Positions 1,804 through 10,607 of a stretch of 64,000 nucleotides of DNA are shown piece by piece; position 1 is the first letter of the stretch, and every line of letters begins with the position of its first letter. The notes below the pieces were generated by a model that saw only the letters and a program-made list of their open reading frames with translations, did not search any database and had not been told where the DNA came from. Position numbers and translations under genes: made by a program. The stretch lies in assembly GCF_053078305.1 (NCBI RefSeq), contig NZ_CP166879.1; one strand, given 5' to 3'.

Positions 1804-1827
1804 GTATGCCTTTTTGTATGCCTTTTT
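1804..1827. repeat. Left direct repeat GTATGCCTTTTTGTATGCCTTTTT (putative att)
   Basis: Exact 24-bp copy of 10389-10412. Confidence 0.75.
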
Positions 1828-1985
1828 TGAAAAAGATACCCTTGTTGTTTGATCGTCGATAACGGGTATCAATGTGCACATGCAAATCGATGGCGTTTAT
1901 GTGTGCGCTGTCGAACGTTTGAAAATGGTTTTAGGGCGGTTTTAATGCTGGTTGATGTGGCGCTCTGTGGCGCTCGTTTTGGTGT

Positions 1986-2066
1986 GCTGGTGGCGGGGGT
2001 CGAACCCGCATACATGATCAGCCTGTACAGGCTGGCACCGACTCTACCCGTTGAGCGTACACCAGC
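1986..2066 (-). other. tRNA-like remnant (7-bp acceptor stem GCTGGTG/CACCAGC, canonical T-arm GCGGG-TTCGACC-CCCGC, aberrant anticodon arm, no CCA)
   Basis: Hand-folded from sequence; anticodon region replaced by perfect palindrome CAGCCTGTACAGGCTG. Confidence 0.45.
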
Positions 2067-2090
2067 AAAAAAGCGATGAGGTTGTTGGCT

Positions 2091-2178
2091 GCTGGTGGTG
2101 GGGGTCGAACCCACATAAACATCCCGCTTTCTGGAAGCTATACAAGCGGACGCCGCTTTACCGATTAAGAGTACACCA
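2091..2178 (-). other. Second tRNA-like remnant (T-arm GTGGG-TTCGACC-CCCAC plus CACCAGC 3' acceptor strand; 5' acceptor strand incomplete)
   Basis: Read from sequence; paralogous to 1986-2066 element. Confidence 0.35.
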
Positions 2179-2261
2179 TACAGCCAGGTAAAATAGTAAT
2201 CATGCGTTATGTGCGGGTAAAGTCTGTTTCGTCTGGTAGCACCAGATGAACGGGTATCATT

Positions 2262-2330
2262 ATTTCACCTGATTTCACGTGATTTCGCTTAATTTCACAA
2301 AAATCACCTTCTTTCACCTTCTTTCACAAA
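2262..2330. repeat. Array of six TTTCAC(C) direct repeats (iteron-like, crr-like)
   Basis: TTTCAC at 2264, 2274, 2294, 2313, 2323 plus degenerate copies; resembles P4 type I iteron TGTTCACC. Confidence 0.5.
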
Positions 2331-2461
2331 AAACAAATCATCATTAAAGCGCCTGATTCGCTCTCTGATGCGTTTTGGTGTTTTTGTGGCGTCCGTGATG
2401 CCCTGAAAGGGGATTTTTGCGATAGCGGCGCAAATATAACGGTTGCTGCTGGTATCTGTGG

Positions 2462-2869
2462 TTAGTCTTGCGTGATTTTATTGGCGTGCTTCTTTCTCAG
2501 TCGTCGTATGATGTCGTAAATATGGGTTTCGGATATTGCGTACTCTTTGCGTAATGCCTGCAATTTTTCGCCGTTATCCCACCTGTAGTAAATCTCGTAT
2601 TCGCGCAATGCTGCGAAAAGTGATCTGCCTGTTGGAAGGTAAAGACTTCGCCCACCAGCATAGAAGGCGATTGCAGCGACAACCCGCTTTGCGATTCTGA
2701 AAGCGTCTGCCTCCTCCATGCCATTACGGGTAAGTTCCGCTACTGAATGCGACACGATATCAGCAAGCGAATCACACCATGCATCACCTGGTTTATCTCC
2801 GTTGTCTATGGCGTCGATGAATTTAAGCCGCTCGATGTCTTTTGGTACGTGATGGGTTTGCTCGTTCAT
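2462..2869 (-). CDS. Mor-family-like transcriptional activator
   Basis: 135-aa ORF; C-terminal ...LYLPTGRSL...ISETHIYDIIRR pattern resembles Mor/C-type HTH domain. Confidence 0.55.
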   Translation of the reverse strand: MNEQTHHVPKDIERLKFIDAIDNGDKPGDAWCDSLADIVSHSVAELTRNGMEEADAFRIAKRVVAAIAFYAGGRSLYLPTGRSLFAALREYEIYYRWDNGEKLQALRKEYAISETHIYDIIRRLRKKHANKITQD

Positions 2870-2982
2870 CCGGTAGCCTCTTGCGTTGGTGTATCTGGTC
2901 CTACCAGTTTAATTTAACGTCGCAATAAAACGATATACACGCACACAATCAGAAAAGCCGTCTGACTGTTCCGGTCCCGTGC

Positions 2983-3255
2983 TTACTTCTGGTAGCTACG
3001 CCAGATTTTTTTACATCTCCCTCCTATCCCCATTTCTGCGTAAGTGCGGTTTACTGCTTTCCTCAGGTCTGCGTAGTTCTCCTCTGGCGGCTCCGGTGGC
3101 CTCTGTGCCTTCCCGTAACATTCTGCCCTGCGCATTGCCACCCGTTCGCGTTCCCTGTCAGTCTCCACCAGCATCATCACTTCAGCCCATCGCGCCGCCG
3201 CTCTCCGGTAAAAGCCCTTCGCCTCCAGCTCTTCCGCTATGCTGTCATGTACCAT
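2983..3255 (-). CDS. PerC-family transcriptional regulator-like protein
   Basis: 90-aa ORF with AEELEAKGFYRRAAARWAEVM motif typical of PerC/Pch proteins of prophage-like elements. Confidence 0.6.
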   Translation of the reverse strand: MVHDSIAEELEAKGFYRRAAARWAEVMMLVETDRERERVAMRRAECYGKAQRPPEPPEENYADLRKAVNRTYAEMGIGGRCKKIWRSYQK

Positions 3256-3265
3256 CGTTCACCCC

Positions 3266-3676
3266 TCAGAACGGAATATTGTCACCGTAAGGGTCATCGC
3301 CTCCCACTGGTGGCTGATTACCCTGTGTGCCTGTGGTCCTGCGTCTGTTGCCACCTGGTCGCGCCGTTTTCGCACTGATTACGCTGTCTGCAATGACCTG
3401 ATAACCCTGCCGCGTTTCCCCGTTCTGTCCGGTCCACTGACTGACCTGCATCACACCGGATACGCTGATTACGTTGCCTTTCTCATGTCCTGCCAGTTGG
3501 TCGGCCTGTTTGCCAAATGCCAGGACAGACAGCCATAACGTTGCCTGCCCGTCCTGCGCCTGACTGCATGGCAGCGATACCGCCATACGTGCCAGCGTCA
3601 TCGGTGTGCCCTTACTGGTCTGTTTTGTCTGCGGGTCGTCAATCAGTCGCCCGTAAGCTGCTATCTGCGCTGTCAT
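3266..3676 (-). CDS. Single-stranded DNA-binding protein-like (OB-fold, acidic ...DDPYGDNIPF tail)
   Basis: 136-aa ORF; glycine-rich linker and C-terminal acidic tip ending IPF as in SSB. Confidence 0.55.
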   Translation of the reverse strand: MTAQIAAYGRLIDDPQTKQTSKGTPMTLARMAVSLPCSQAQDGQATLWLSVLAFGKQADQLAGHEKGNVISVSGVMQVSQWTGQNGETRQGYQVIADSVISAKTARPGGNRRRTTGTQGNQPPVGGDDPYGDNIPF

Positions 3677-3777
3677 GATTCCACCTCTCCGGTTTTAACG
3701 TTGATGGTTGTTACCTGTTCCGCTTCTGCAATCTCCCGCTCTGTCAGCGTGGTAAAGTTTGCCGCTGCTGTGCTCAT
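3673..3777 (-). CDS. Small ORF (34 aa, MSTAAANFTTLTEREIAEAEQVTTINVKTGEVES) translationally coupled to ssb-like gene (ATGA overlap)
   Basis: Hand-translated; not in ORF track because below length cutoff. Confidence 0.3.
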   Translation of the reverse strand: MSTAAANFTTLTEREIAEAEQVTTINVKTGEVES

Positions 3778-3915
3778 GAATGCACTTATCAGCCAGGGGG
3801 CTTTCGCGTGTCTTTCTGCCGTGTTGTGGCCCTTCGTTCATGAGCAAAACACTTAAATAAAACTAAAGTGATTTTCTGTGTTTTCGTGCTGCTCTGCTCT
3901 GTGTTTTTTTGCCGT

Positions 3916-4130
3916 TTACTCACCACTACTCACTTTTTTTACTCACTTTTTGGAATCGCTCACTTCGTCTCACCTGAGATTTTTGGTGTTTTTATGTGTG
4001 TGTTTTATAAGTGGTTTTTTACTACTCACTTTTTTGCCTATATACAGGTGAGAAAGTGAGTAATTTTGTTAATTTTTTGTAAAATTACTCACTTTACTCA
4101 CTTTTGCTCCTCACTTTTTTACAGCGGTAC
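3916..4130. repeat. Iteron array: at least 8 copies of ACTCACTTT (one inverted), AT-rich; candidate replication origin
   Basis: Repeats read directly (e.g. TACTCACCACTACTCACTTTTTTTACTCACTTTTT; AAAGTGAGTA inverted copy); immediately 3' of replication helicase gene. Confidence 0.6.
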
Positions 4131-5516
4131 TACGTCATCGCCGTCAATGCGTATAGTCTCGTCTTTCTCCAGTTTTGCTAACCATCGCCGCATGTTTTTC
4201 ACGTCATACCCAAGCCGTTTCATGTCGTCGCGCAACAACGAAATAGTGCACTTGTCGCCGTGCTGTGTGCGTGACCGGATGCAGCCCCATAGCGCGGTAT
4301 GGTTTTCCGTCTTGTTGCCAGCCTCCTCGATGCGCTCCACTTCAACGGGATGACGCGGCTTATCCACCACAACCAGAGACGTGATTAACTCCCCGTCAGC
4401 GTCGGTAAAAAGCTCAACTACCCGCAAATCGTAGGCAGCTTCTTTGAGTTCCTCTGCGTCCTTCATTTTGGTACATGAGATAACCAGCGCTTCGCTTCCT
4501 GCGTCCTCCCTGCGTATCCGGTATTCAGCATCCAGTGATGCACGAAATGCACTGGAACCACGCGCCCCCTTTGTTTCATCCTTGCCGGAATGGTGAACCA
4601 CCAGCACCGTTGCCCCTGTGCGCCGTTTCAGTTCGTCACACCCACGGATAAACGCCCCCATATCACGGGAATCATTTTCATCATTGCCACCAAAGCAACG
4701 CGCCAGCGTATCCAGAATAATCATGCGTACAGGTTTACCCGTTTCCCGTTCCACCTGGCGGGCAGCGATAACCATTTCATCAACATCAAGCGGGGCAGCC
4801 GGAAAGATGGGGCGGTTTACCAGATACAGATTTTTCACCTGCTCACCGTGCACAACCTCCCAGGCTTTTACACGACGCGGAACGCCGATACCGCCTTCAC
4901 CAACCACATAGAGAACAGCGCCATGCGCCACCCTGCGGCCTCCCCACTGGCGGCCCGTGGAAACGTGACACGCCCACGAACCCGCAAGGAACGATTTATA
5001 GGAACCGCTCGCCCCGTATATGCTGCACAGCGATACCGCCGGAATAATCCCCTTAACCACGTAATCCAGTTGCGTGTCATATCCGGCAGAACCAACGCTC
5101 ATCGGTAGCTTTGTTTTGCGCTGGTGGCCTTTTTCTTCCTGCTTTTCCCCGCGCTCCCGTTCCAGATATTCGCGCCAGTTCTCCCGCTTCTGGCTGTGCA
5201 TCCCATCGGGGTAGTAATTCGCATCCTGTACGCCTGCCGCTGCCAGTTTTTGCGCGATGGCATTAATATTTGATGGTCTGATATGGCTTGCTTTGTACAG
5301 CCGGACGCAATAGCGCCCCTCGTCAATGATTTTCGTGTCTGCCAGTTCTGCCAGTTGCTGCTCCCCAAGCCATACAGGTGGCACATTATCGCCAGCAAGT
5401 CGGCCCTCCTGCTCCTGCCACTGCTTCGCGTGTGCCCAGGCATCACTACCCACAAAAATAATGACCTCGGTCATTTTGTCGTAAGGCTGTTTTTTTAAGT
5501 TCGGTGCGCTTTTCAT
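4119..5516 (-). CDS. Replication initiator/helicase (RecA-fold, AAA_25/RepA-like; P4 alpha-like role)
   Basis: 465-aa ORF; Walker A GASGSYKS, Walker B MIILDTLARCF...; C-terminal putative DNA-binding region; adjacent iterons. Confidence 0.8.
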   Translation of the reverse strand: MKSAPNLKKQPYDKMTEVIIFVGSDAWAHAKQWQEQEGRLAGDNVPPVWLGEQQLAELADTKIIDEGRYCVRLYKASHIRPSNINAIAQKLAAAGVQDANYYPDGMHSQKRENWREYLERERGEKQEEKGHQRKTKLPMSVGSAGYDTQLDYVVKGIIPAVSLCSIYGASGSYKSFLAGSWACHVSTGRQWGGRRVAHGAVLYVVGEGGIGVPRRVKAWEVVHGEQVKNLYLVNRPIFPAAPLDVDEMVIAARQVERETGKPVRMIILDTLARCFGGNDENDSRDMGAFIRGCDELKRRTGATVLVVHHSGKDETKGARGSSAFRASLDAEYRIRREDAGSEALVISCTKMKDAEELKEAAYDLRVVELFTDADGELITSLVVVDKPRHPVEVERIEEAGNKTENHTALWGCIRSRTQHGDKCTISLLRDDMKRLGYDVKNMRRWLAKLEKDETIRIDGDDVVPL

Positions 5517-5812
5517 TTCTTACCCCTGAATGCGTTAATCATCTTTTTCATCTTCTGTATTTTTGCCAGTGCCTTTACGTTGCTGGTGGGCACGTTACGC
5601 GGTACCGCCTGCACCAGAGAAAAATCACGGGAAAACTGATAAACAGGCATCACGCAGTCATATTCGTAGCCTTTACGGCGGTAGGTGACGCACCGCCCCG
5701 CCACGCCCTTAATCATTACCGTGCCGCCGTACTGGTCGCGGTAAATATCACCGCGCTTAAATTCAGGGCGAGGCTTGCCGCTGGCAGTTAAGCCAGTTTT
5801 TTTCATGTTCAT
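5513..5812 (-). CDS. Hypothetical small basic protein
   Basis: 99-aa ORF, stop overlaps helicase start (ATGA); no family recognised with confidence. Confidence 0.45.
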   Translation of the reverse strand: MNMKKTGLTASGKPRPEFKRGDIYRDQYGGTVMIKGVAGRCVTYRRKGYEYDCVMPVYQFSRDFSLVQAVPRNVPTSNVKALAKIQKMKKMINAFRGKK

Positions 5813-5885
5813 TTTTTTATCCTTTGTTCTGGTCAGTTACGCCGTTGCTGCATAAATGCGGTTAGCGGTGCCTGTCGTTGCCTTA

Positions 5886-6200
5886 TCACGAATGGCGATA
5901 ATCAGCACTGATATCTCCGTTACGACAACGCCAGTTGTACACCTCCACAACCTCACTGAATCCGGCCACAAGTTCAGCCGTAACAGCGATGGAATCGCCC
6001 AGGCTGCGCAGTTCGTCCATGTCAGGATCAATGCTGTCACTCATGCCAGAAAGTAAGCGCCCTGTGATAGCCAGCCCTTCAAGCAGTTTGCGGGCGTAGA
6101 AATCAGCATCATCAAACATCGCTCTCGCTTCCCGTGCGTCAGCTGCTTTTATGGTTGTAACCAGTTGTTCAAGTATTCTGGTGTTACACACATCACGCAT
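5886..6200 (-). CDS. Hypothetical protein
   Basis: 104-aa ORF in co-oriented gene train; no recognisable motifs. Confidence 0.45.
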   Translation of the reverse strand: MRDVCNTRILEQLVTTIKAADAREARAMFDDADFYARKLLEGLAITGRLLSGMSDSIDPDMDELRSLGDSIAVTAELVAGFSEVVEVYNWRCRNGDISADYRHS

Positions 6201-6363
6201 GACTCACCCCCTCACGAATAAGGGTGACAAAAATCAGATGGGTGTGCGGAAGTTGTGCGCGTGCTTCGTGCTCAGTGGCAGCGGTAACGGTGAATATTGC
6301 AATGCTGCCTGTCAGGCACTGCATAAAGCGCCAGACAAAGTAAGGGCGTGCGGATACAGCCAT
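6193..6363 (-). CDS. Icd-like small protein, copy C (56 aa; MAVSARPYFVWRFMQC...)
   Basis: Internal Met of ORF 6193..6687 preceded by strong SD (AGGAG, ~8-nt spacer); conserved C-terminal block shared by three tandem copies. Confidence 0.5.
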   Translation of the reverse strand: MAVSARPYFVWRFMQCLTGSIAIFTVTAATEHEARAQLPHTHLIFVTLIREGVSHA

Positions 6364-6649
6364 GTGAAAGGCTCCTATGTTTGAGGTAAGGAGTCTCGCT
6401 ACTACGCTGCTAAACATGGTGGCGAGACGTAACAGGGTTAGCAGACTGGCAACATAGAAACCAGCGAGCGCAAAGGCTCCCCCGTTACGCCCCGCCATAA
6501 TGCGGGTATGGGTAGGTTTACGGACACAAAAAAACCGCATATCGGAATGTAAGCGGCTGTCCGCTATGTTATTCAGGCTGCTAAACCCGGTCGCCATGTG
6601 GGTGACTCCGGCATCATACAGCCCGAAAGAAGAGGCGATCAACATGTTT

Positions 6650-6820
6650 TTATCCATGTGATGCCTCCTGACGGATACGGGCGACAAAAATCAGATGTGC
6701 GTGCGGCAGCCGGGCGCGTGCTTCGTGCTCAGTGGCAGCGGTAACGGTGAATACATCGATGTTACTGTGGTGGCACTGCATAAAGCGCCAGACAAAGTAA
6801 GGGCGTGCGAATACAGCCAT
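6650..6820 (-). CDS. Icd-like small protein, copy B (56 aa; MAVFARPYFVWRFMQC...)
   Basis: As copy C; SD AGGAG upstream of internal ATG at 6820. Confidence 0.5.
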   Translation of the reverse strand: MAVFARPYFVWRFMQCHHSNIDVFTVTAATEHEARARLPHAHLIFVARIRQEASHG

Positions 6821-7106
6821 GTGAAAGGCTCCTGTAGTGAAATTAAGGAGTCTCGCTACTACGCTGTCAAACATGGTGGCGAGACGTAACAGGGTTGACA
6901 GACTGGCACTACAGGAACCAGCGAGCGCAAAGGCTCCCCCGTTACGCCCCGCCATAATGCGGGTATGGGTAGGCTTACGGACACAAAAAAACCGCATATC
7001 GGAATGTAAGCGGCTGTCCGCTGTAGTATTCAGGCTGTCAAACCCGGTCGCCATGTGGACGACTCCGGCATCATACAGCCCGAAAGAAGAGGCGATCAAC
7101 ATGTTT

Positions 7107-7295
7107 TTAAGCATGACTCACCCCCTGACGAATACGGGCGGCGAATACAGCGACACAACCGGACGGGCAACGGTTACGCGCTTCGCGTTCCGTCCAGGCG
7201 GTTACGTGGATGATTTGACGTTCTGACGTGCCAAAGGTGATAAAGCGCCAGATAAAGGCGGTTTGAGAATGTACGAGGGCAGGGGTAGTAGCCAT
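7107..7295 (-). CDS. Icd-like small protein, diverged copy A (62 aa; MATTPALVHSQTAFIWRF...)
   Basis: SD AGGAGG upstream of ATG at 7295; C-terminus ...TEREARNRCPSG...ARIRQGVSHA homologous to copies B/C. Confidence 0.45.
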   Translation of the reverse strand: MATTPALVHSQTAFIWRFITFGTSERQIIHVTAWTEREARNRCPSGCVAVFAARIRQGVSHA

Positions 7296-7825
7296 GATGG
7301 CAGCCTCCTTTATCGTTGGGATATACCCACCGCTGGAGGTTCCAATCTCGCTGGCGGTGGACTGCACGGAGTTGGAACTACTGGCGATAAAGGAAACCAG
7401 CCTGACCGAAGTCAGCCCCATACAGCCCACCATTGATAAGGTGTGCGTGTGCGCCGATACAAAAAAAGACGCGTTCGGCGTCTGTATCGCCTTTATCTCC
7501 AGCGGGGTTCCAATCCCGACACCCGTTTTATGAGGTGCGCGGGAATCATAGCCATTTTTGATACTGGCGATCAACTGATTTTCTCTGGCGGGTATTTGGC
7601 GCGGATGCCTGTTACCTGTGGCAATATACACACGACTGTATACAATACACATCGGTTAACTCCTTATATTCCGTTGATGGCCCGTAGTGTTATTGCATTG
7701 CGGGTATTTTTTACCTGCCGTTAATTGAATGCGGCAAGGCATCACGACGGTTAACCCGTTTTGCATAACGTGAGGCGTTTTATTTTCTGCGCTGGTGGCT
7801 TTTATATTTCACATATGGGAATTTA

Positions 7826-8029
7826 TTATTCCTGCTGATAACGCTCCTCTACTTTCTTCTCAAGCCATGATTTCACCTCATCCTCAAACCAGCCAACGCG
7901 GCGTAATCCACGCTTAAAACCAGGAATAAATTCACCAGCCTTAACCATTGTGTCAATGCTCGTTGTACTAAGGCGAAGAAGATTTGCGACTTCTCGTTTT
8001 GTAAGGATTTTCTTTTCTGTAATGTTCAT
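7826..8029 (-). CDS. alpA: AlpA-family phage transcriptional regulator (HTH)
   Basis: 67-aa ORF, LTKREVANLLRLSTTSIDTMVKAGEFIP HTH typical of AlpA/prophage CP4-57 regulator family. Confidence 0.8.
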   Translation of the reverse strand: MNITEKKILTKREVANLLRLSTTSIDTMVKAGEFIPGFKRGLRRVGWFEDEVKSWLEKKVEERYQQE

Positions 8030-8121
8030 ACTTTGCGTTCCTTTTGTTTCAGGCGCTAACTTGCCTAAACTTGTTCAAGGATATGCAAACACGGTAAAAG
8101 CTGGCATTGCGGAATATTACG

Positions 8122-8145
8122 AAAAAAGCCCGTAATATTACGGGC
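8122..8145 (-). terminator. Rho-independent terminator after int-cargo unit
   Basis: Hairpin GCCCGTAATATTACGGGC followed on minus strand by U6. Confidence 0.65.
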
Positions 8146-8166
8146 GGTCATATGTTCAGAAGTCTG

Positions 8167-9063
8167 TCAGTCGTCAACGTCTGCAAGCCACTTACCTATG
8201 CATGTTGGTGTGGCACCGATATCAACGCCTGCTTTGGTTAGTGCGCGGCTTAACTTGCTGTGACCGTTTTCAAGCGCCCTTCGTGGGTTTGACGCCTCTT
8301 CTTCTCCGGCTATAGCGGTGATTAGTCTTTTGATAACTCTGGCCTGAAGATTGGTTGTTTTCTTTGATGGGGGTGGTTTATTGATGTTTAATTCATCCAT
8401 GTTTTCAATAGAAGCGGTACGCCCTCCGTTTATGGCTAAATCTATCTCACTTCTGGAAATAAAAATATCGTTACGTGATATATCCCATCCCTGTAATAAA
8501 ATCGCAGCTTTAAAATCATCCTCGTCATCGTTATCGATTATCTGAATGTATTTAGTATTTGTTGTATCGTGAAATGATAATCTTTCAATGTCTGCGCTGT
8601 TAGCCTTTACATTAAGCAATCCATCAGCTTTAACATATATTTCTTTTGCGGGTGTTATTATTTGTGCGTTTTTTATCTCTGGCTCATCTTCAGCAAAAAT
8701 ATTCATGCTGAAATAATCACCATATGATGAGTAATGATAGTTTATGTTGAGTCCTGCATGTGCATAATAAAAAACATCTATTGGAGTGAGTAGCTTATTT
8801 ATAGATGTGGCATCAATGATTACATTGCAATATTCATTTGTGTAATGCTGGTATAATGTTTTATTAGCACTGATAAGCTCAGGCTTTACCCCTTCATAAT
8901 ACTTTAATGTCAGTTTTTCATTTATATTAATGCGATACAAAAAACGCATCCTCCTCGTAGCGATGAAATGAAGCAAATCATCAACGTCACACTCAAGCCT
9001 TCTGGCTGCCTTGTCTAACGGGTAATAATCCCTTTCAGGAAGGTTTATTTTTTTGTTTGCCAT
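8167..9063 (-). CDS. Hypothetical protein, low-GC cargo (possible N-terminal excisionase-like HTH); function unknown
   Basis: 298-aa ORF 4 bp downstream of integrase stop; markedly AT-rich (about one third GC by eye) versus flanking genes; N/I/D-rich; followed by terminator. Confidence 0.6.
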   Translation of the reverse strand: MANKKINLPERDYYPLDKAARRLECDVDDLLHFIATRRMRFLYRININEKLTLKYYEGVKPELISANKTLYQHYTNEYCNVIIDATSINKLLTPIDVFYYAHAGLNINYHYSSYGDYFSMNIFAEDEPEIKNAQIITPAKEIYVKADGLLNVKANSADIERLSFHDTTNTKYIQIIDNDDEDDFKAAILLQGWDISRNDIFISRSEIDLAINGGRTASIENMDELNINKPPPSKKTTNLQARVIKRLITAIAGEEEASNPRRALENGHSKLSRALTKAGVDIGATPTCIGKWLADVDD

Positions 9064-9067
9064 GCCC

Positions 9068-10348
9068 TTAACCGTTAACCATTTTTAACCCACGATAGCC
9101 ACCCGTGGCGCTTACGCTCCCGCTGGCAGCTGCCTCTACAAAATCCCCCCACCACGCCATTAACGGGCGTCGCTGCTCGAGATAGGTTGAGCGGTTGTAC
9201 GCACGGCGAACCTCGTTTTTATCTATGTGTGACAATGCCGCCTCGATTACGTCAGAGTCAAAACCTTGCTCGTTAAGTGCGGTACTTGCTATTGAGCGCA
9301 AGCCATGAGCAACCAGCCGCCCACTAAAACCCATGCGTTTTATTGCTGCGTTTGCTGTTTGTACGCACATATGGCGCTGCGGGTCGCTGTTGTGTGGAAA
9401 TATAAACTCACGATGCCCGCTTATTGGCTTCATGACGTCCAGAATGGCTAACGCCTGCTTCGAGAGTGGTATTACGTGTTCCCTGCGTTGTTTAAGTCTG
9501 TGCTCTGGTATGCGCCATTCCTTCACCTCAAAATCAATTTCACACCAGCGCGCGCCAGCTGCTTCACCTGGTCGGCAAATTGTCAGTAGCTGCCACTCAA
9601 TGACCAGCCGCGTTTGTCGTTCCACCCGTGCCGTTGCCAGCTTCTGCATAAATTCGGGGAGTTCTTCAGGGCGTATTGCTGGCATGTTCTTAACGCTTGG
9701 CGCGTTAAATGCCTTGCTTATCTCTGATGCCGGATTCGCGGCAATCATTCCGGTATTAACGGCGTAATACATGACCTCATTGATTCGCTGTGCTGTCCTT
9801 CTGACGGTATCTAATTTCCCCTGGGCGGCTAATGGTTTTAATGCTTCGATGAAATTGCTTGCTATCAGGTCTGCTATTGGCCTGTTACCGACTGACGGGA
9901 ATACATTACGCTCCAGCGAACGCCATATATCGCGTAGTGTATCTTCTGCGAGTCCTTGCCCTTTTTTAAGTTCAAACCAGAGCGTAGCTACATGCCTGAA
10001 GGTGTTCTCTCTCTTCATCACTTCACTAAGGCGCTGTTTCTCTCTGTGCTCTTTTGGGTCAATGCCACCAGAAAGAAGCGCTCTGTATTCGTCTTTTATC
10101 TTTCGCGCGCCCGCAATGCTGATTTCTGGATATGCGCCAATGCTTAACATGGCCCGTTTTTTTGTGTGTGGCTTGTAGTAGCGGTAACGCCACAAGCAAG
10201 AGGCGCTTTTGTGCTTAATCACCAGTTCCAGCCCTTCGCCGTCAGTGATGAAAAGGTCCTTTTTTTCGTTGCTGGCTTTTCGCTGGAGGCTTTTTATCGT
10301 TGCGGGTGATAAAGACTTAACTTTTTTGGTCACCGGTTCAACTCCCAT
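9068..10348 (-). CDS. int: Tyrosine site-specific integrase, P4-type
   Basis: 426-aa ORF; catalytic tail ...AHGLRSIASTAL...RAYNRSTY; adjacent to tRNA and att repeat. Confidence 0.9.
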   Translation of the reverse strand: MGVEPVTKKVKSLSPATIKSLQRKASNEKKDLFITDGEGLELVIKHKSASCLWRYRYYKPHTKKRAMLSIGAYPEISIAGARKIKDEYRALLSGGIDPKEHREKQRLSEVMKRENTFRHVATLWFELKKGQGLAEDTLRDIWRSLERNVFPSVGNRPIADLIASNFIEALKPLAAQGKLDTVRRTAQRINEVMYYAVNTGMIAANPASEISKAFNAPSVKNMPAIRPEELPEFMQKLATARVERQTRLVIEWQLLTICRPGEAAGARWCEIDFEVKEWRIPEHRLKQRREHVIPLSKQALAILDVMKPISGHREFIFPHNSDPQRHMCVQTANAAIKRMGFSGRLVAHGLRSIASTALNEQGFDSDVIEAALSHIDKNEVRRAYNRSTYLEQRRPLMAWWGDFVEAAASGSVSATGGYRGLKMVNG

Positions 10349-10388
10349 AAGCTGTTAAAGGCATATGCAAATCTGTGTTTTTTCCGGC

Positions 10389-10412
10389 GTATGCCTTTTT
10401 GTATGCCTTTTT
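10389..10412. repeat. Right direct repeat GTATGCCTTTTTGTATGCCTTTTT (putative att)
   Basis: Exact 24-bp copy of 1804-1827, 41 bp upstream of int start. Confidence 0.75.
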
Positions 10413-10531: not shown

Positions 10532-10607
10532 TGGTGGCCCCTGCTGGACTTGAACCAGCGACCAAGCGATTATGAGTCGCCTGCTCTAACCACTGAGCTA
10601 AGGGGCC
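10532..10607 (-). tRNA. ileX: tRNA-Ile2 (anticodon CAU, lysidine-modified), 76 nt with encoded CCA
   Basis: Reverse complement reads GGCCCCTTAGCTCAGTGGTTAGAGCAGGCGACTCATAATCGCTTGGTCGCTGGTTCAAGTCCAGCAGGGGCCACCA; cloverleaf and CAT anticodon. Confidence 0.9.

Follow-up and report, generated by a model that had tools for sequence, protein, structure and literature searches.

Does the short open reading frame (ORF) that runs into the start of an ssb-like gene represent a small gene in its own right, coupled in translation to ssb, or a part of something larger? We examined this locus in a 64,000-nucleotide stretch of contig NZ_CP166879.1 (assembly GCF_053078305.1), referred to here as the window. 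The ORF comprises 34 codons and a stop on the minus strand (ATG at 3777-3775, TGA at 3675-3673), and its translation is MSTAAANFTTLTEREIAEAEQVTTINVKTGEVES. The TGA overlaps the ssb ATG (3676-3674) as ATGA, with the junction reading ...ggagaggtggaatcATGAca / ...GGAGAGGTGGAATCATGACA. The ORF listing and a reading of the sequence confirmed the coordinates and the overlap reported in a preliminary description, which had presented the ORF as unannotated and translationally coupled to ssb.

Within the first 9 kb of the window, 115 ORFs reached 25 aa or more, and we calculated the chance of finding 34 open codons in random sequence to be about 20% ((61/64)^34). As a bare ORF, the 34-codon frame is no better than chance; homology lifts it above that level. 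We conclude that the ORF is very probably the 3' relic of a pseudogenized phrog_1231 gene and not a separate small gene, a reading supported by homology, by lesions, by Shine-Dalgarno energies and by loss of the frame in a sister island. The family to which the relic belongs is known and uncharacterized, and PGAP already calls the relic a pseudogene in sister genomes.

Homology to the end of a longer protein

The 34-aa peptide matched the PHROG family phrog_1231 (E = 1.8e-17, 64 bits) at profile positions 50-83 of 83 only. The ORF corresponds to residues 50-83 of the strain 042 protein WP_000192401.1 (83 aa; MTQKRRDRTEPKYKALDMTEHTLKVAIRTIDRHTREGYAKEHPDLISAFMTTAAANFATLTEREIAEAEQVTTINVKTGEVEL), and what serves as its ATG is Met50, an internal codon of the family. 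Over these last 34 residues, the window was 91-94% identical to the phrog_1231 proteins WP_000192401.1 of 042 and WP_001260558.1 of CFT073. BLAST matched the region in 1033 out of 5426 complete E. coli genomes. At the protein level, a search gave 170 clusters, most of them 80-104 aa long, and scanned viral contigs yielded 352 relatives. The exact 34-aa sequence was absent from a collection of 15 billion proteins. What homologues conserve is this frame as the 3' terminus of a longer gene, of about 83 codons, and not as a 34-aa gene.

Intact family genes and the window relic occupy the same slot: the origin iterons lie on one side, and on the other is the next gene, whose start overlaps their stop. 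The next gene is ssb, overlapping as ATGA, in strains 042 (L002 6145-6396; WP_000192401.1, 83 aa), CFT073 (L004 7903-8160; 85 aa), EC100 (L094 2905-3162; 85 aa) and ERL05-1306 (L096 2783-3034; WP_000192401.1, 83 aa); in LH50-c (L095 2922-3173; 83 aa), a 101-aa hypothetical gene follows with the ATGA overlap, and then ssb. In the annotated records of intact loci, the slot is filled by an 82-85-aa "hypothetical protein". The stop overlapped the next ORF as ATGA in 85 of the 88 related loci examined, this ORF being SSB in most cases and a 101-aa protein starting MSEPKFGEK in about ten. The ATGA overlap is therefore an inherited family feature. The window shares the slot, the overlap and the last 34 residues with intact phrog_1231 loci, but it lacks residues 1-49, has an in-frame stop upstream and is annotated as a pseudogene by PGAP in its sisters.

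The C-terminal 34 residues are the best-conserved stretch of the phrog_1231 family. When 1.84 billion cluster representatives were searched with a profile, 633 superfamily hits had E <= 0.001. The superfamily core, I-D-x3-G-x-G-Y-A-K-x-H-P-E-L-I-x-A-F-M-x-T-A-A, lies at about profile positions 15-62, and its I-D-x3-G-x-G-Y-A-K-x-H-P-E-L-I part was nearly invariant across 105 superfamily sequences; the C-terminal tail was not common to distant members. The superfamily members tested fall in phrog_1231. Searches of Pfam returned nothing above threshold for either the 34-aa peptide or the intact 83-aa protein, and distant superfamily members matched no Pfam family. The superfamily is large and may be linked to AlpA/primase modules of integrative elements: one distant member (L089 5001-5255), in an integrase-bearing element, shares an overlap with an AlpA gene and is followed by a DUF927 protein.

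An AlphaFold2 model of the intact protein, built with 105 sequences, predicted a helical hairpin (helices at residues 11-33 and 43-81; pLDDT 82.8) with a confident core at about residues 11-65 (pLDDT 87-98) and a low-confidence stretch at residues 63-83. In the model, residues 50-62 pack on helix 1, which is missing from the remnant. A sequence-profile search of the PDB with the family returned designed helical bundles only (E > 0.009), Foldseek gave no match with E < 6 against the PDB, and its matches in BFVD were uncharacterized phage proteins only. Gene position by itself suggests an accessory role in replication or early regulation for phrog_1231, a widespread, conserved and uncharacterized small protein of phage-satellite replication modules. 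In the four loci compared, the hypervariable N-terminal part tracked the type of upstream initiator: MTQKRRDR/MNRKTRDK-type N-termini followed RepA-family helicases (L002 and L095), and MRTSGKLNNQKK-type N-termini followed "DNA primase family" proteins (L004 and L094).

Decay of the 5' part

Reading in frame upstream of ATG 3777, beyond the remnant of residues 50-83 (3673-3777, minus strand), we obtained ...TKGHNTAERHAKAPWLISAF, preceded by a TGA at 3840-3838 that closes the frame; at the aligned position, residue 28, strain 042 has AGA. The extension between this stop and the ATG (3778-3837; TKGHNTAERHAKAPW) was homologous by tblastn to family residues 29-49 and carried several lesions in the (nearly) invariant motif, namely G37R, Y38H, a one-codon deletion removing H42, and D/E44W. 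The ORF thus lacks residues 1-49, which include the family's invariant GxGYAKxHP(E/D)LI core. Farther upstream, the decayed 5' part (3841-3929, minus strand) was only about 48% identical to intact alleles, and the start codon of strain 042 aligned with an ACG at 3915-3913 (alignment A1). The ORF had been placed directly downstream of the iterons; the iteron region is real, but some 150 nt (3778-3929) of former coding sequence, now decayed, intervene before the ATG.

Identity between the window and intact alleles was 0.48 in the N-terminal part, 0.61-0.67 over 17 middle codons and 0.90-0.95 over the last 40 codons, compared with 0.57-0.61, 0.82-0.88 and 0.92-0.97, respectively, among different intact allele types. 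The decayed 5' sequence (3793-3935) was present in 7 out of 5426 complete E. coli genomes. A "distant" BLAST search for an intact allele with the window's 5' sequence matched only the seven broken-allele genomes. The PGAP records of five of these sister islands carry a pseudogene of 126 nt ("hypothetical protein; incomplete; missing N-terminus") that begins at the equivalent of window position 3798 and ends at the ssb start. The description "unannotated" therefore holds for the raw window, but not for the equivalent stretch in the RefSeq records of its sisters.

We also considered two longer ORFs with alternative start codons, a GTG ORF at 3926-3789 (45 aa) and a TTG ORF at 3847-3695 (50 aa). 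Both were rejected, as each lies in a non-homologous frame and has a weak ribosome-binding site; their resemblance to the family N-terminus reflects A-rich low complexity.

In related E. coli phage-inducible chromosomal islands, the gene for a helical-hairpin protein of about 83 aa is located right after the origin iterons, with its stop overlapping the next start, usually that of ssb. In the window's island lineage, the 5' two-thirds of this gene has been destroyed, with the start lost in the alignment, an in-frame TGA present and the core mutated; the open remainder begins at an internal Met codon and extends to the former stop. This remainder would encode only the distal portion of helix 3 together with the low-confidence tail, and so could not adopt the family fold. 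An orderly small ORF whose ATGA overlap looks like a textbook case may simply be what remains at the end of a dead gene; "unannotated" ORFs below a length cutoff beside real genes should first be compared with longer homologues.

One observation runs counter to a simple relic: the remnant has diverged from intact alleles by 5-10%, whereas the stretch just upstream has diverged by 33-39%. This step could reflect residual constraint or recent recombination at about position 3792.

Translation, selection and competing explanations

Overlapping stop and start codons couple translation in bacterial operons at ATGA or TGATG junctions. Like such systems, the window has a 4-nt ATGA junction and a frame upstream of ssb. 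To compare the two start codons, we calculated anti-Shine-Dalgarno duplex energies. The value for the 20 nt upstream of ATG 3777 was -2.0 kcal/mol, weaker than the median of -2.9 kcal/mol over all 191 minus-strand ATGs in the first 11 kb. By contrast, the ssb ATG reached -11.0 kcal/mol, with its Shine-Dalgarno sequence, GAGGTG (3682-3687, minus strand), located 5 nt before the ATG and inside remnant codons 31-33. Because ATG 3777 has no Shine-Dalgarno sequence, few ribosomes would be expected in the remnant; ssb, with its own strong site, does not need coupling. The proposal of translational coupling thus stands as far as the ATGA overlap is concerned, which is real and family-wide, but with a Shine-Dalgarno sequence only at ssb, a coupled route would probably receive few ribosomes and would be superfluous.

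RNA folding of 3640-3800 revealed no significant structure around the ssb start (z = -1.28), and RNAalifold gave no covariation support across 27 alleles (term +0.41). A promoter scan of 2400-4300 found no match to the sigma-70 consensus. Terminator-like matches in the same interval were on the plus strand, and one of them, in the origin, is the iteron palindrome.

The intact alleles showed a pN/pS of 0.05 over residues 50-77. All six window-type alleles carry T51S and A58T, five out of six carry A55T, and one carries R63W; none of T51S, A55T and A58T occurred in the 31 unique intact alleles. We counted five synonymous and four nonsynonymous events among the window-type alleles (P = 0.02 for omega = 0.05; P = 0.05 for omega = 1). 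The protein-level constraint on the remnant appears relaxed, and the count of nine events also fits full neutrality poorly.

A more distant sister island, L097 (assembly GCA_020148725.1), occupies the same nfeF insertion site, with flanks 99.9% identical to E. coli, and shares the decayed 5' part with the window at 0.90 identity. Conservation of the reading frame in related islands had been put forward as a check on the ORF, and in L097 this conservation fails: a 2-nt deletion in the remnant shifts the frame into a TAA stop located 18 nt short of the ssb ATG, and the ATGA is gone, with ssb, perC and mor all intact. The remnant block was the least conserved segment between the window and L097 (identity 0.80, compared with 0.93 for ssb and repA). 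Its pN was 0.149 (0.032 for ssb) and its pN/pS 0.44, compared with 0.14 for repA, 0.19 for ssb, 0.37 for perC and 0.09 for mor.

These results bear on three other explanations. The remnant might be kept as a short leader ORF that influences SSB yield: ribosomes would terminate at the ATGA and start again on ssb, the peptide sequence being irrelevant. Such a frame-only role would fit the presence of the overlap in the window, its recurrence in 85 of 88 family loci even where the next gene is not ssb, and the tolerance of changes at family-invariant amino acids. The ATG and open frame are also kept in the window and in the five near-identical sister islands read, but this is expected by chance because those islands are 97-99% identical. 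The weak start at ATG 3777, the strong ssb Shine-Dalgarno sequence with its 5-nt spacer, and the lack of any significant RNA structure hiding the ssb start all argue against a leader, as does L097, in which the frame is broken and ssb remains intact and under purifying selection. We therefore regard a leader function as improbable. That the 34-aa peptide is a functional micro-protein, with the C-terminal module of the family working alone, appears extremely unlikely. The module is the family's most conserved part, and the database ORFs P0140, P0141 and P0162 join unrelated N-termini to it; however, the conserved core lies at about profile positions 15-62, distant members do without the C-terminal tail, residues 63-83 are modeled with low confidence, and residues 50-62 would pack on the missing helix 1. 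The window-type alleles, moreover, have substitutions of their own at positions otherwise invariant, L097 no longer has the frame, and the ATG has no Shine-Dalgarno sequence.

The third explanation is that 3673-3792 has been retained for a role at the level of nucleic acid, as a block of homology for recombination or as an unrecognized regulatory or replication signal. Variable modules lie on both sides of the block, BLAST matches from many lineages start at or just upstream of 3792, the unrelated N-termini in database ORFs are joined exactly at LISAFM, and divergence in the window is much lower within the block than immediately upstream of it. Synonymous diversity in intact genes points the same way: in a locus sample biased toward one allele type, pS was 0.10 over the last 39 codons, as against 0.21 elsewhere in the gene and 0.30 in ssb. 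For pairs with diverged ssb genes, pS rose to 0.44 in ssb and was still 0.10 in the 3' block. Against this explanation, we detected neither covariation nor significant secondary structure in RNA or in the DNA of either strand of 3673-3792 (z = -1.42 and -0.76), the sigma-70 consensus was not matched, and between the window and L097 the block is the least conserved segment and contains an indel, a pattern that speaks against constraint in the lineage whose gene is dead. We consider retention of the window's block for such a role very unlikely. For phrog_1231 genes in general, it is unlikely, though worth stating, that the last approximately 120 nt (window 3673-3792) form an island junction block or an unrecognized cis-acting signal; either would explain both the 3-4-fold lower synonymous diversity and the survival of the block amid the decay of the gene. 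If it were a junction block, islands would swap replication modules (initiator, origin and N-terminal half) against downstream cargo (ssb, perC and others).

Under the preferred reading, that of a pseudogene relic, the remnant, for want of a Shine-Dalgarno sequence, is probably not translated to any appreciable extent. Its last 15 or so nucleotides, which carry the strong ssb Shine-Dalgarno sequence, would be its sole working part. The ssb gene would be translated on its own, without dependence on coupling, and would be co-transcribed with repA through the origin. The ATGA overlap would be a fossil of ancestral coupling, lost altogether in L097.

The island around the relic

The relic lies in an island of about 8.6 kb (1804-10412, minus strand) with perfect 24-nt direct repeats (GTATGCCTTTTTGTATGCCTTTTT) at both ends (1804-1827 and 10389-10412, 8585 bp apart), which are probably its attachment sites. 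A tRNA gene with anticodon CAT (10532-10607) adjoins the island; the inner repeat lies about 120 nt downstream of this gene, not inside it. The island's genes run in the order integrase, an unknown 298-aa protein, AlpA, Ash/Icd-like genes, DUF4222 and RepA helicase, followed by the iterons, the relic, ssb, perC and mor. The integrase (9068-10348) is of the P4 type (Pfam Phage_integrase), and AlpA (7826-8029) scored 23 bits in Pfam against a cut-off of 21. The RepA-family helicase, or replication initiator, spans 4119-5516 on the minus strand (Pfam AAA_25, E = 9e-43). Directly after its stop, the origin iterons (3929-4116, minus strand) comprise eight copies of an AAGTGAG core in two sets flanking an A+T-rich spacer. 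The remaining 63.8 kb or so of the window held five further copies of AAGTGAG, and the total of 13 was reached in none of 100 shuffles. Downstream of the relic on the same strand lie the ssb-like gene (3266-3676; 136 aa, ending ...DNIPF; Pfam SSB PF00436, E = 1.7e-15), a PerC-family regulator (2983-3255) and a Mor-family transcription activator (2462-2869), the last gene of the island.

Fillol-Salom et al. (2018, PMC6092414) describe Gram-negative phage-inducible chromosomal islands in which an initiator gene is followed by an iteron origin, located directly 3' of the initiator and consisting of two iteron sets around an A+T-rich spacer. PerC homologues are reported in PMC11773190 as common cargo of such islands. 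The window's island has the corresponding features, namely an integrase beside an attachment repeat, AlpA, an initiator with a two-set iteron origin, and unidirectional transcription, with a PerC homologue as an accessory gene, as in the islands described in PMC6092414. It differs from the islands described there in that no capsid, terminase or packaging-redirection gene was recognized among the ORFs examined in its 8.6 kb, and in having a Mor-family regulator and terminal tRNA-like sequences. Searches for terms in the text of PMC6092414, PMC11773190 and bioRxiv 10.1101/2022.09.08.507074 located no discussion of the small gene or of ssb.

Islands with the broken gene were found next to nfeF (the window, L001, L007, L008 and L097) and next to a truncated mdtP/fdhF (L005 and L006), and the integrase protein accessions differ between the two sites. 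Since the same broken gene is present at both, the island has changed site after the gene was broken, and this movement without an intact gene suggests that phrog_1231 is dispensable for the window's island lineage. In L005 (E. coli JNEC-KY203), a C-to-T change at the equivalent of position 3622 converts ssb codon 19 from CAG to TAG, so that the PGAP annotation shows a shortened SSB; the stop is a sign of further island decay in one strain.

Two other parts of the island deserve mention. At its distal end, tRNA-like sequences occupy 1976-2117 (minus strand), with an Rfam tRNA match of 35 bits at 1985-2066 and a related copy at 2081-2117. ARAGORN called no tRNA at 1976-2117 in the window, and PGAP calls "tRNA-OTHER" and "tRNA-Tyr" at the equivalent positions in sister islands. 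Toward the other end, 6197-7538 (minus strand) consists of three tandem units of about 457 bp, each with a match to the C4 antisense RNA (RF01695; 6415-6502, 6872-6959 and 7350-7437, minus strand, 72-78 bits), and a match to isrK (RF01394; 7462-7538) follows the three C4 units. The ORFs overlapping the C4 units encode paralogous "Icd-like"/Ash proteins, and the whole stretch looks like a triplicated immunity-like module of the P1/P7 c4-icd type.
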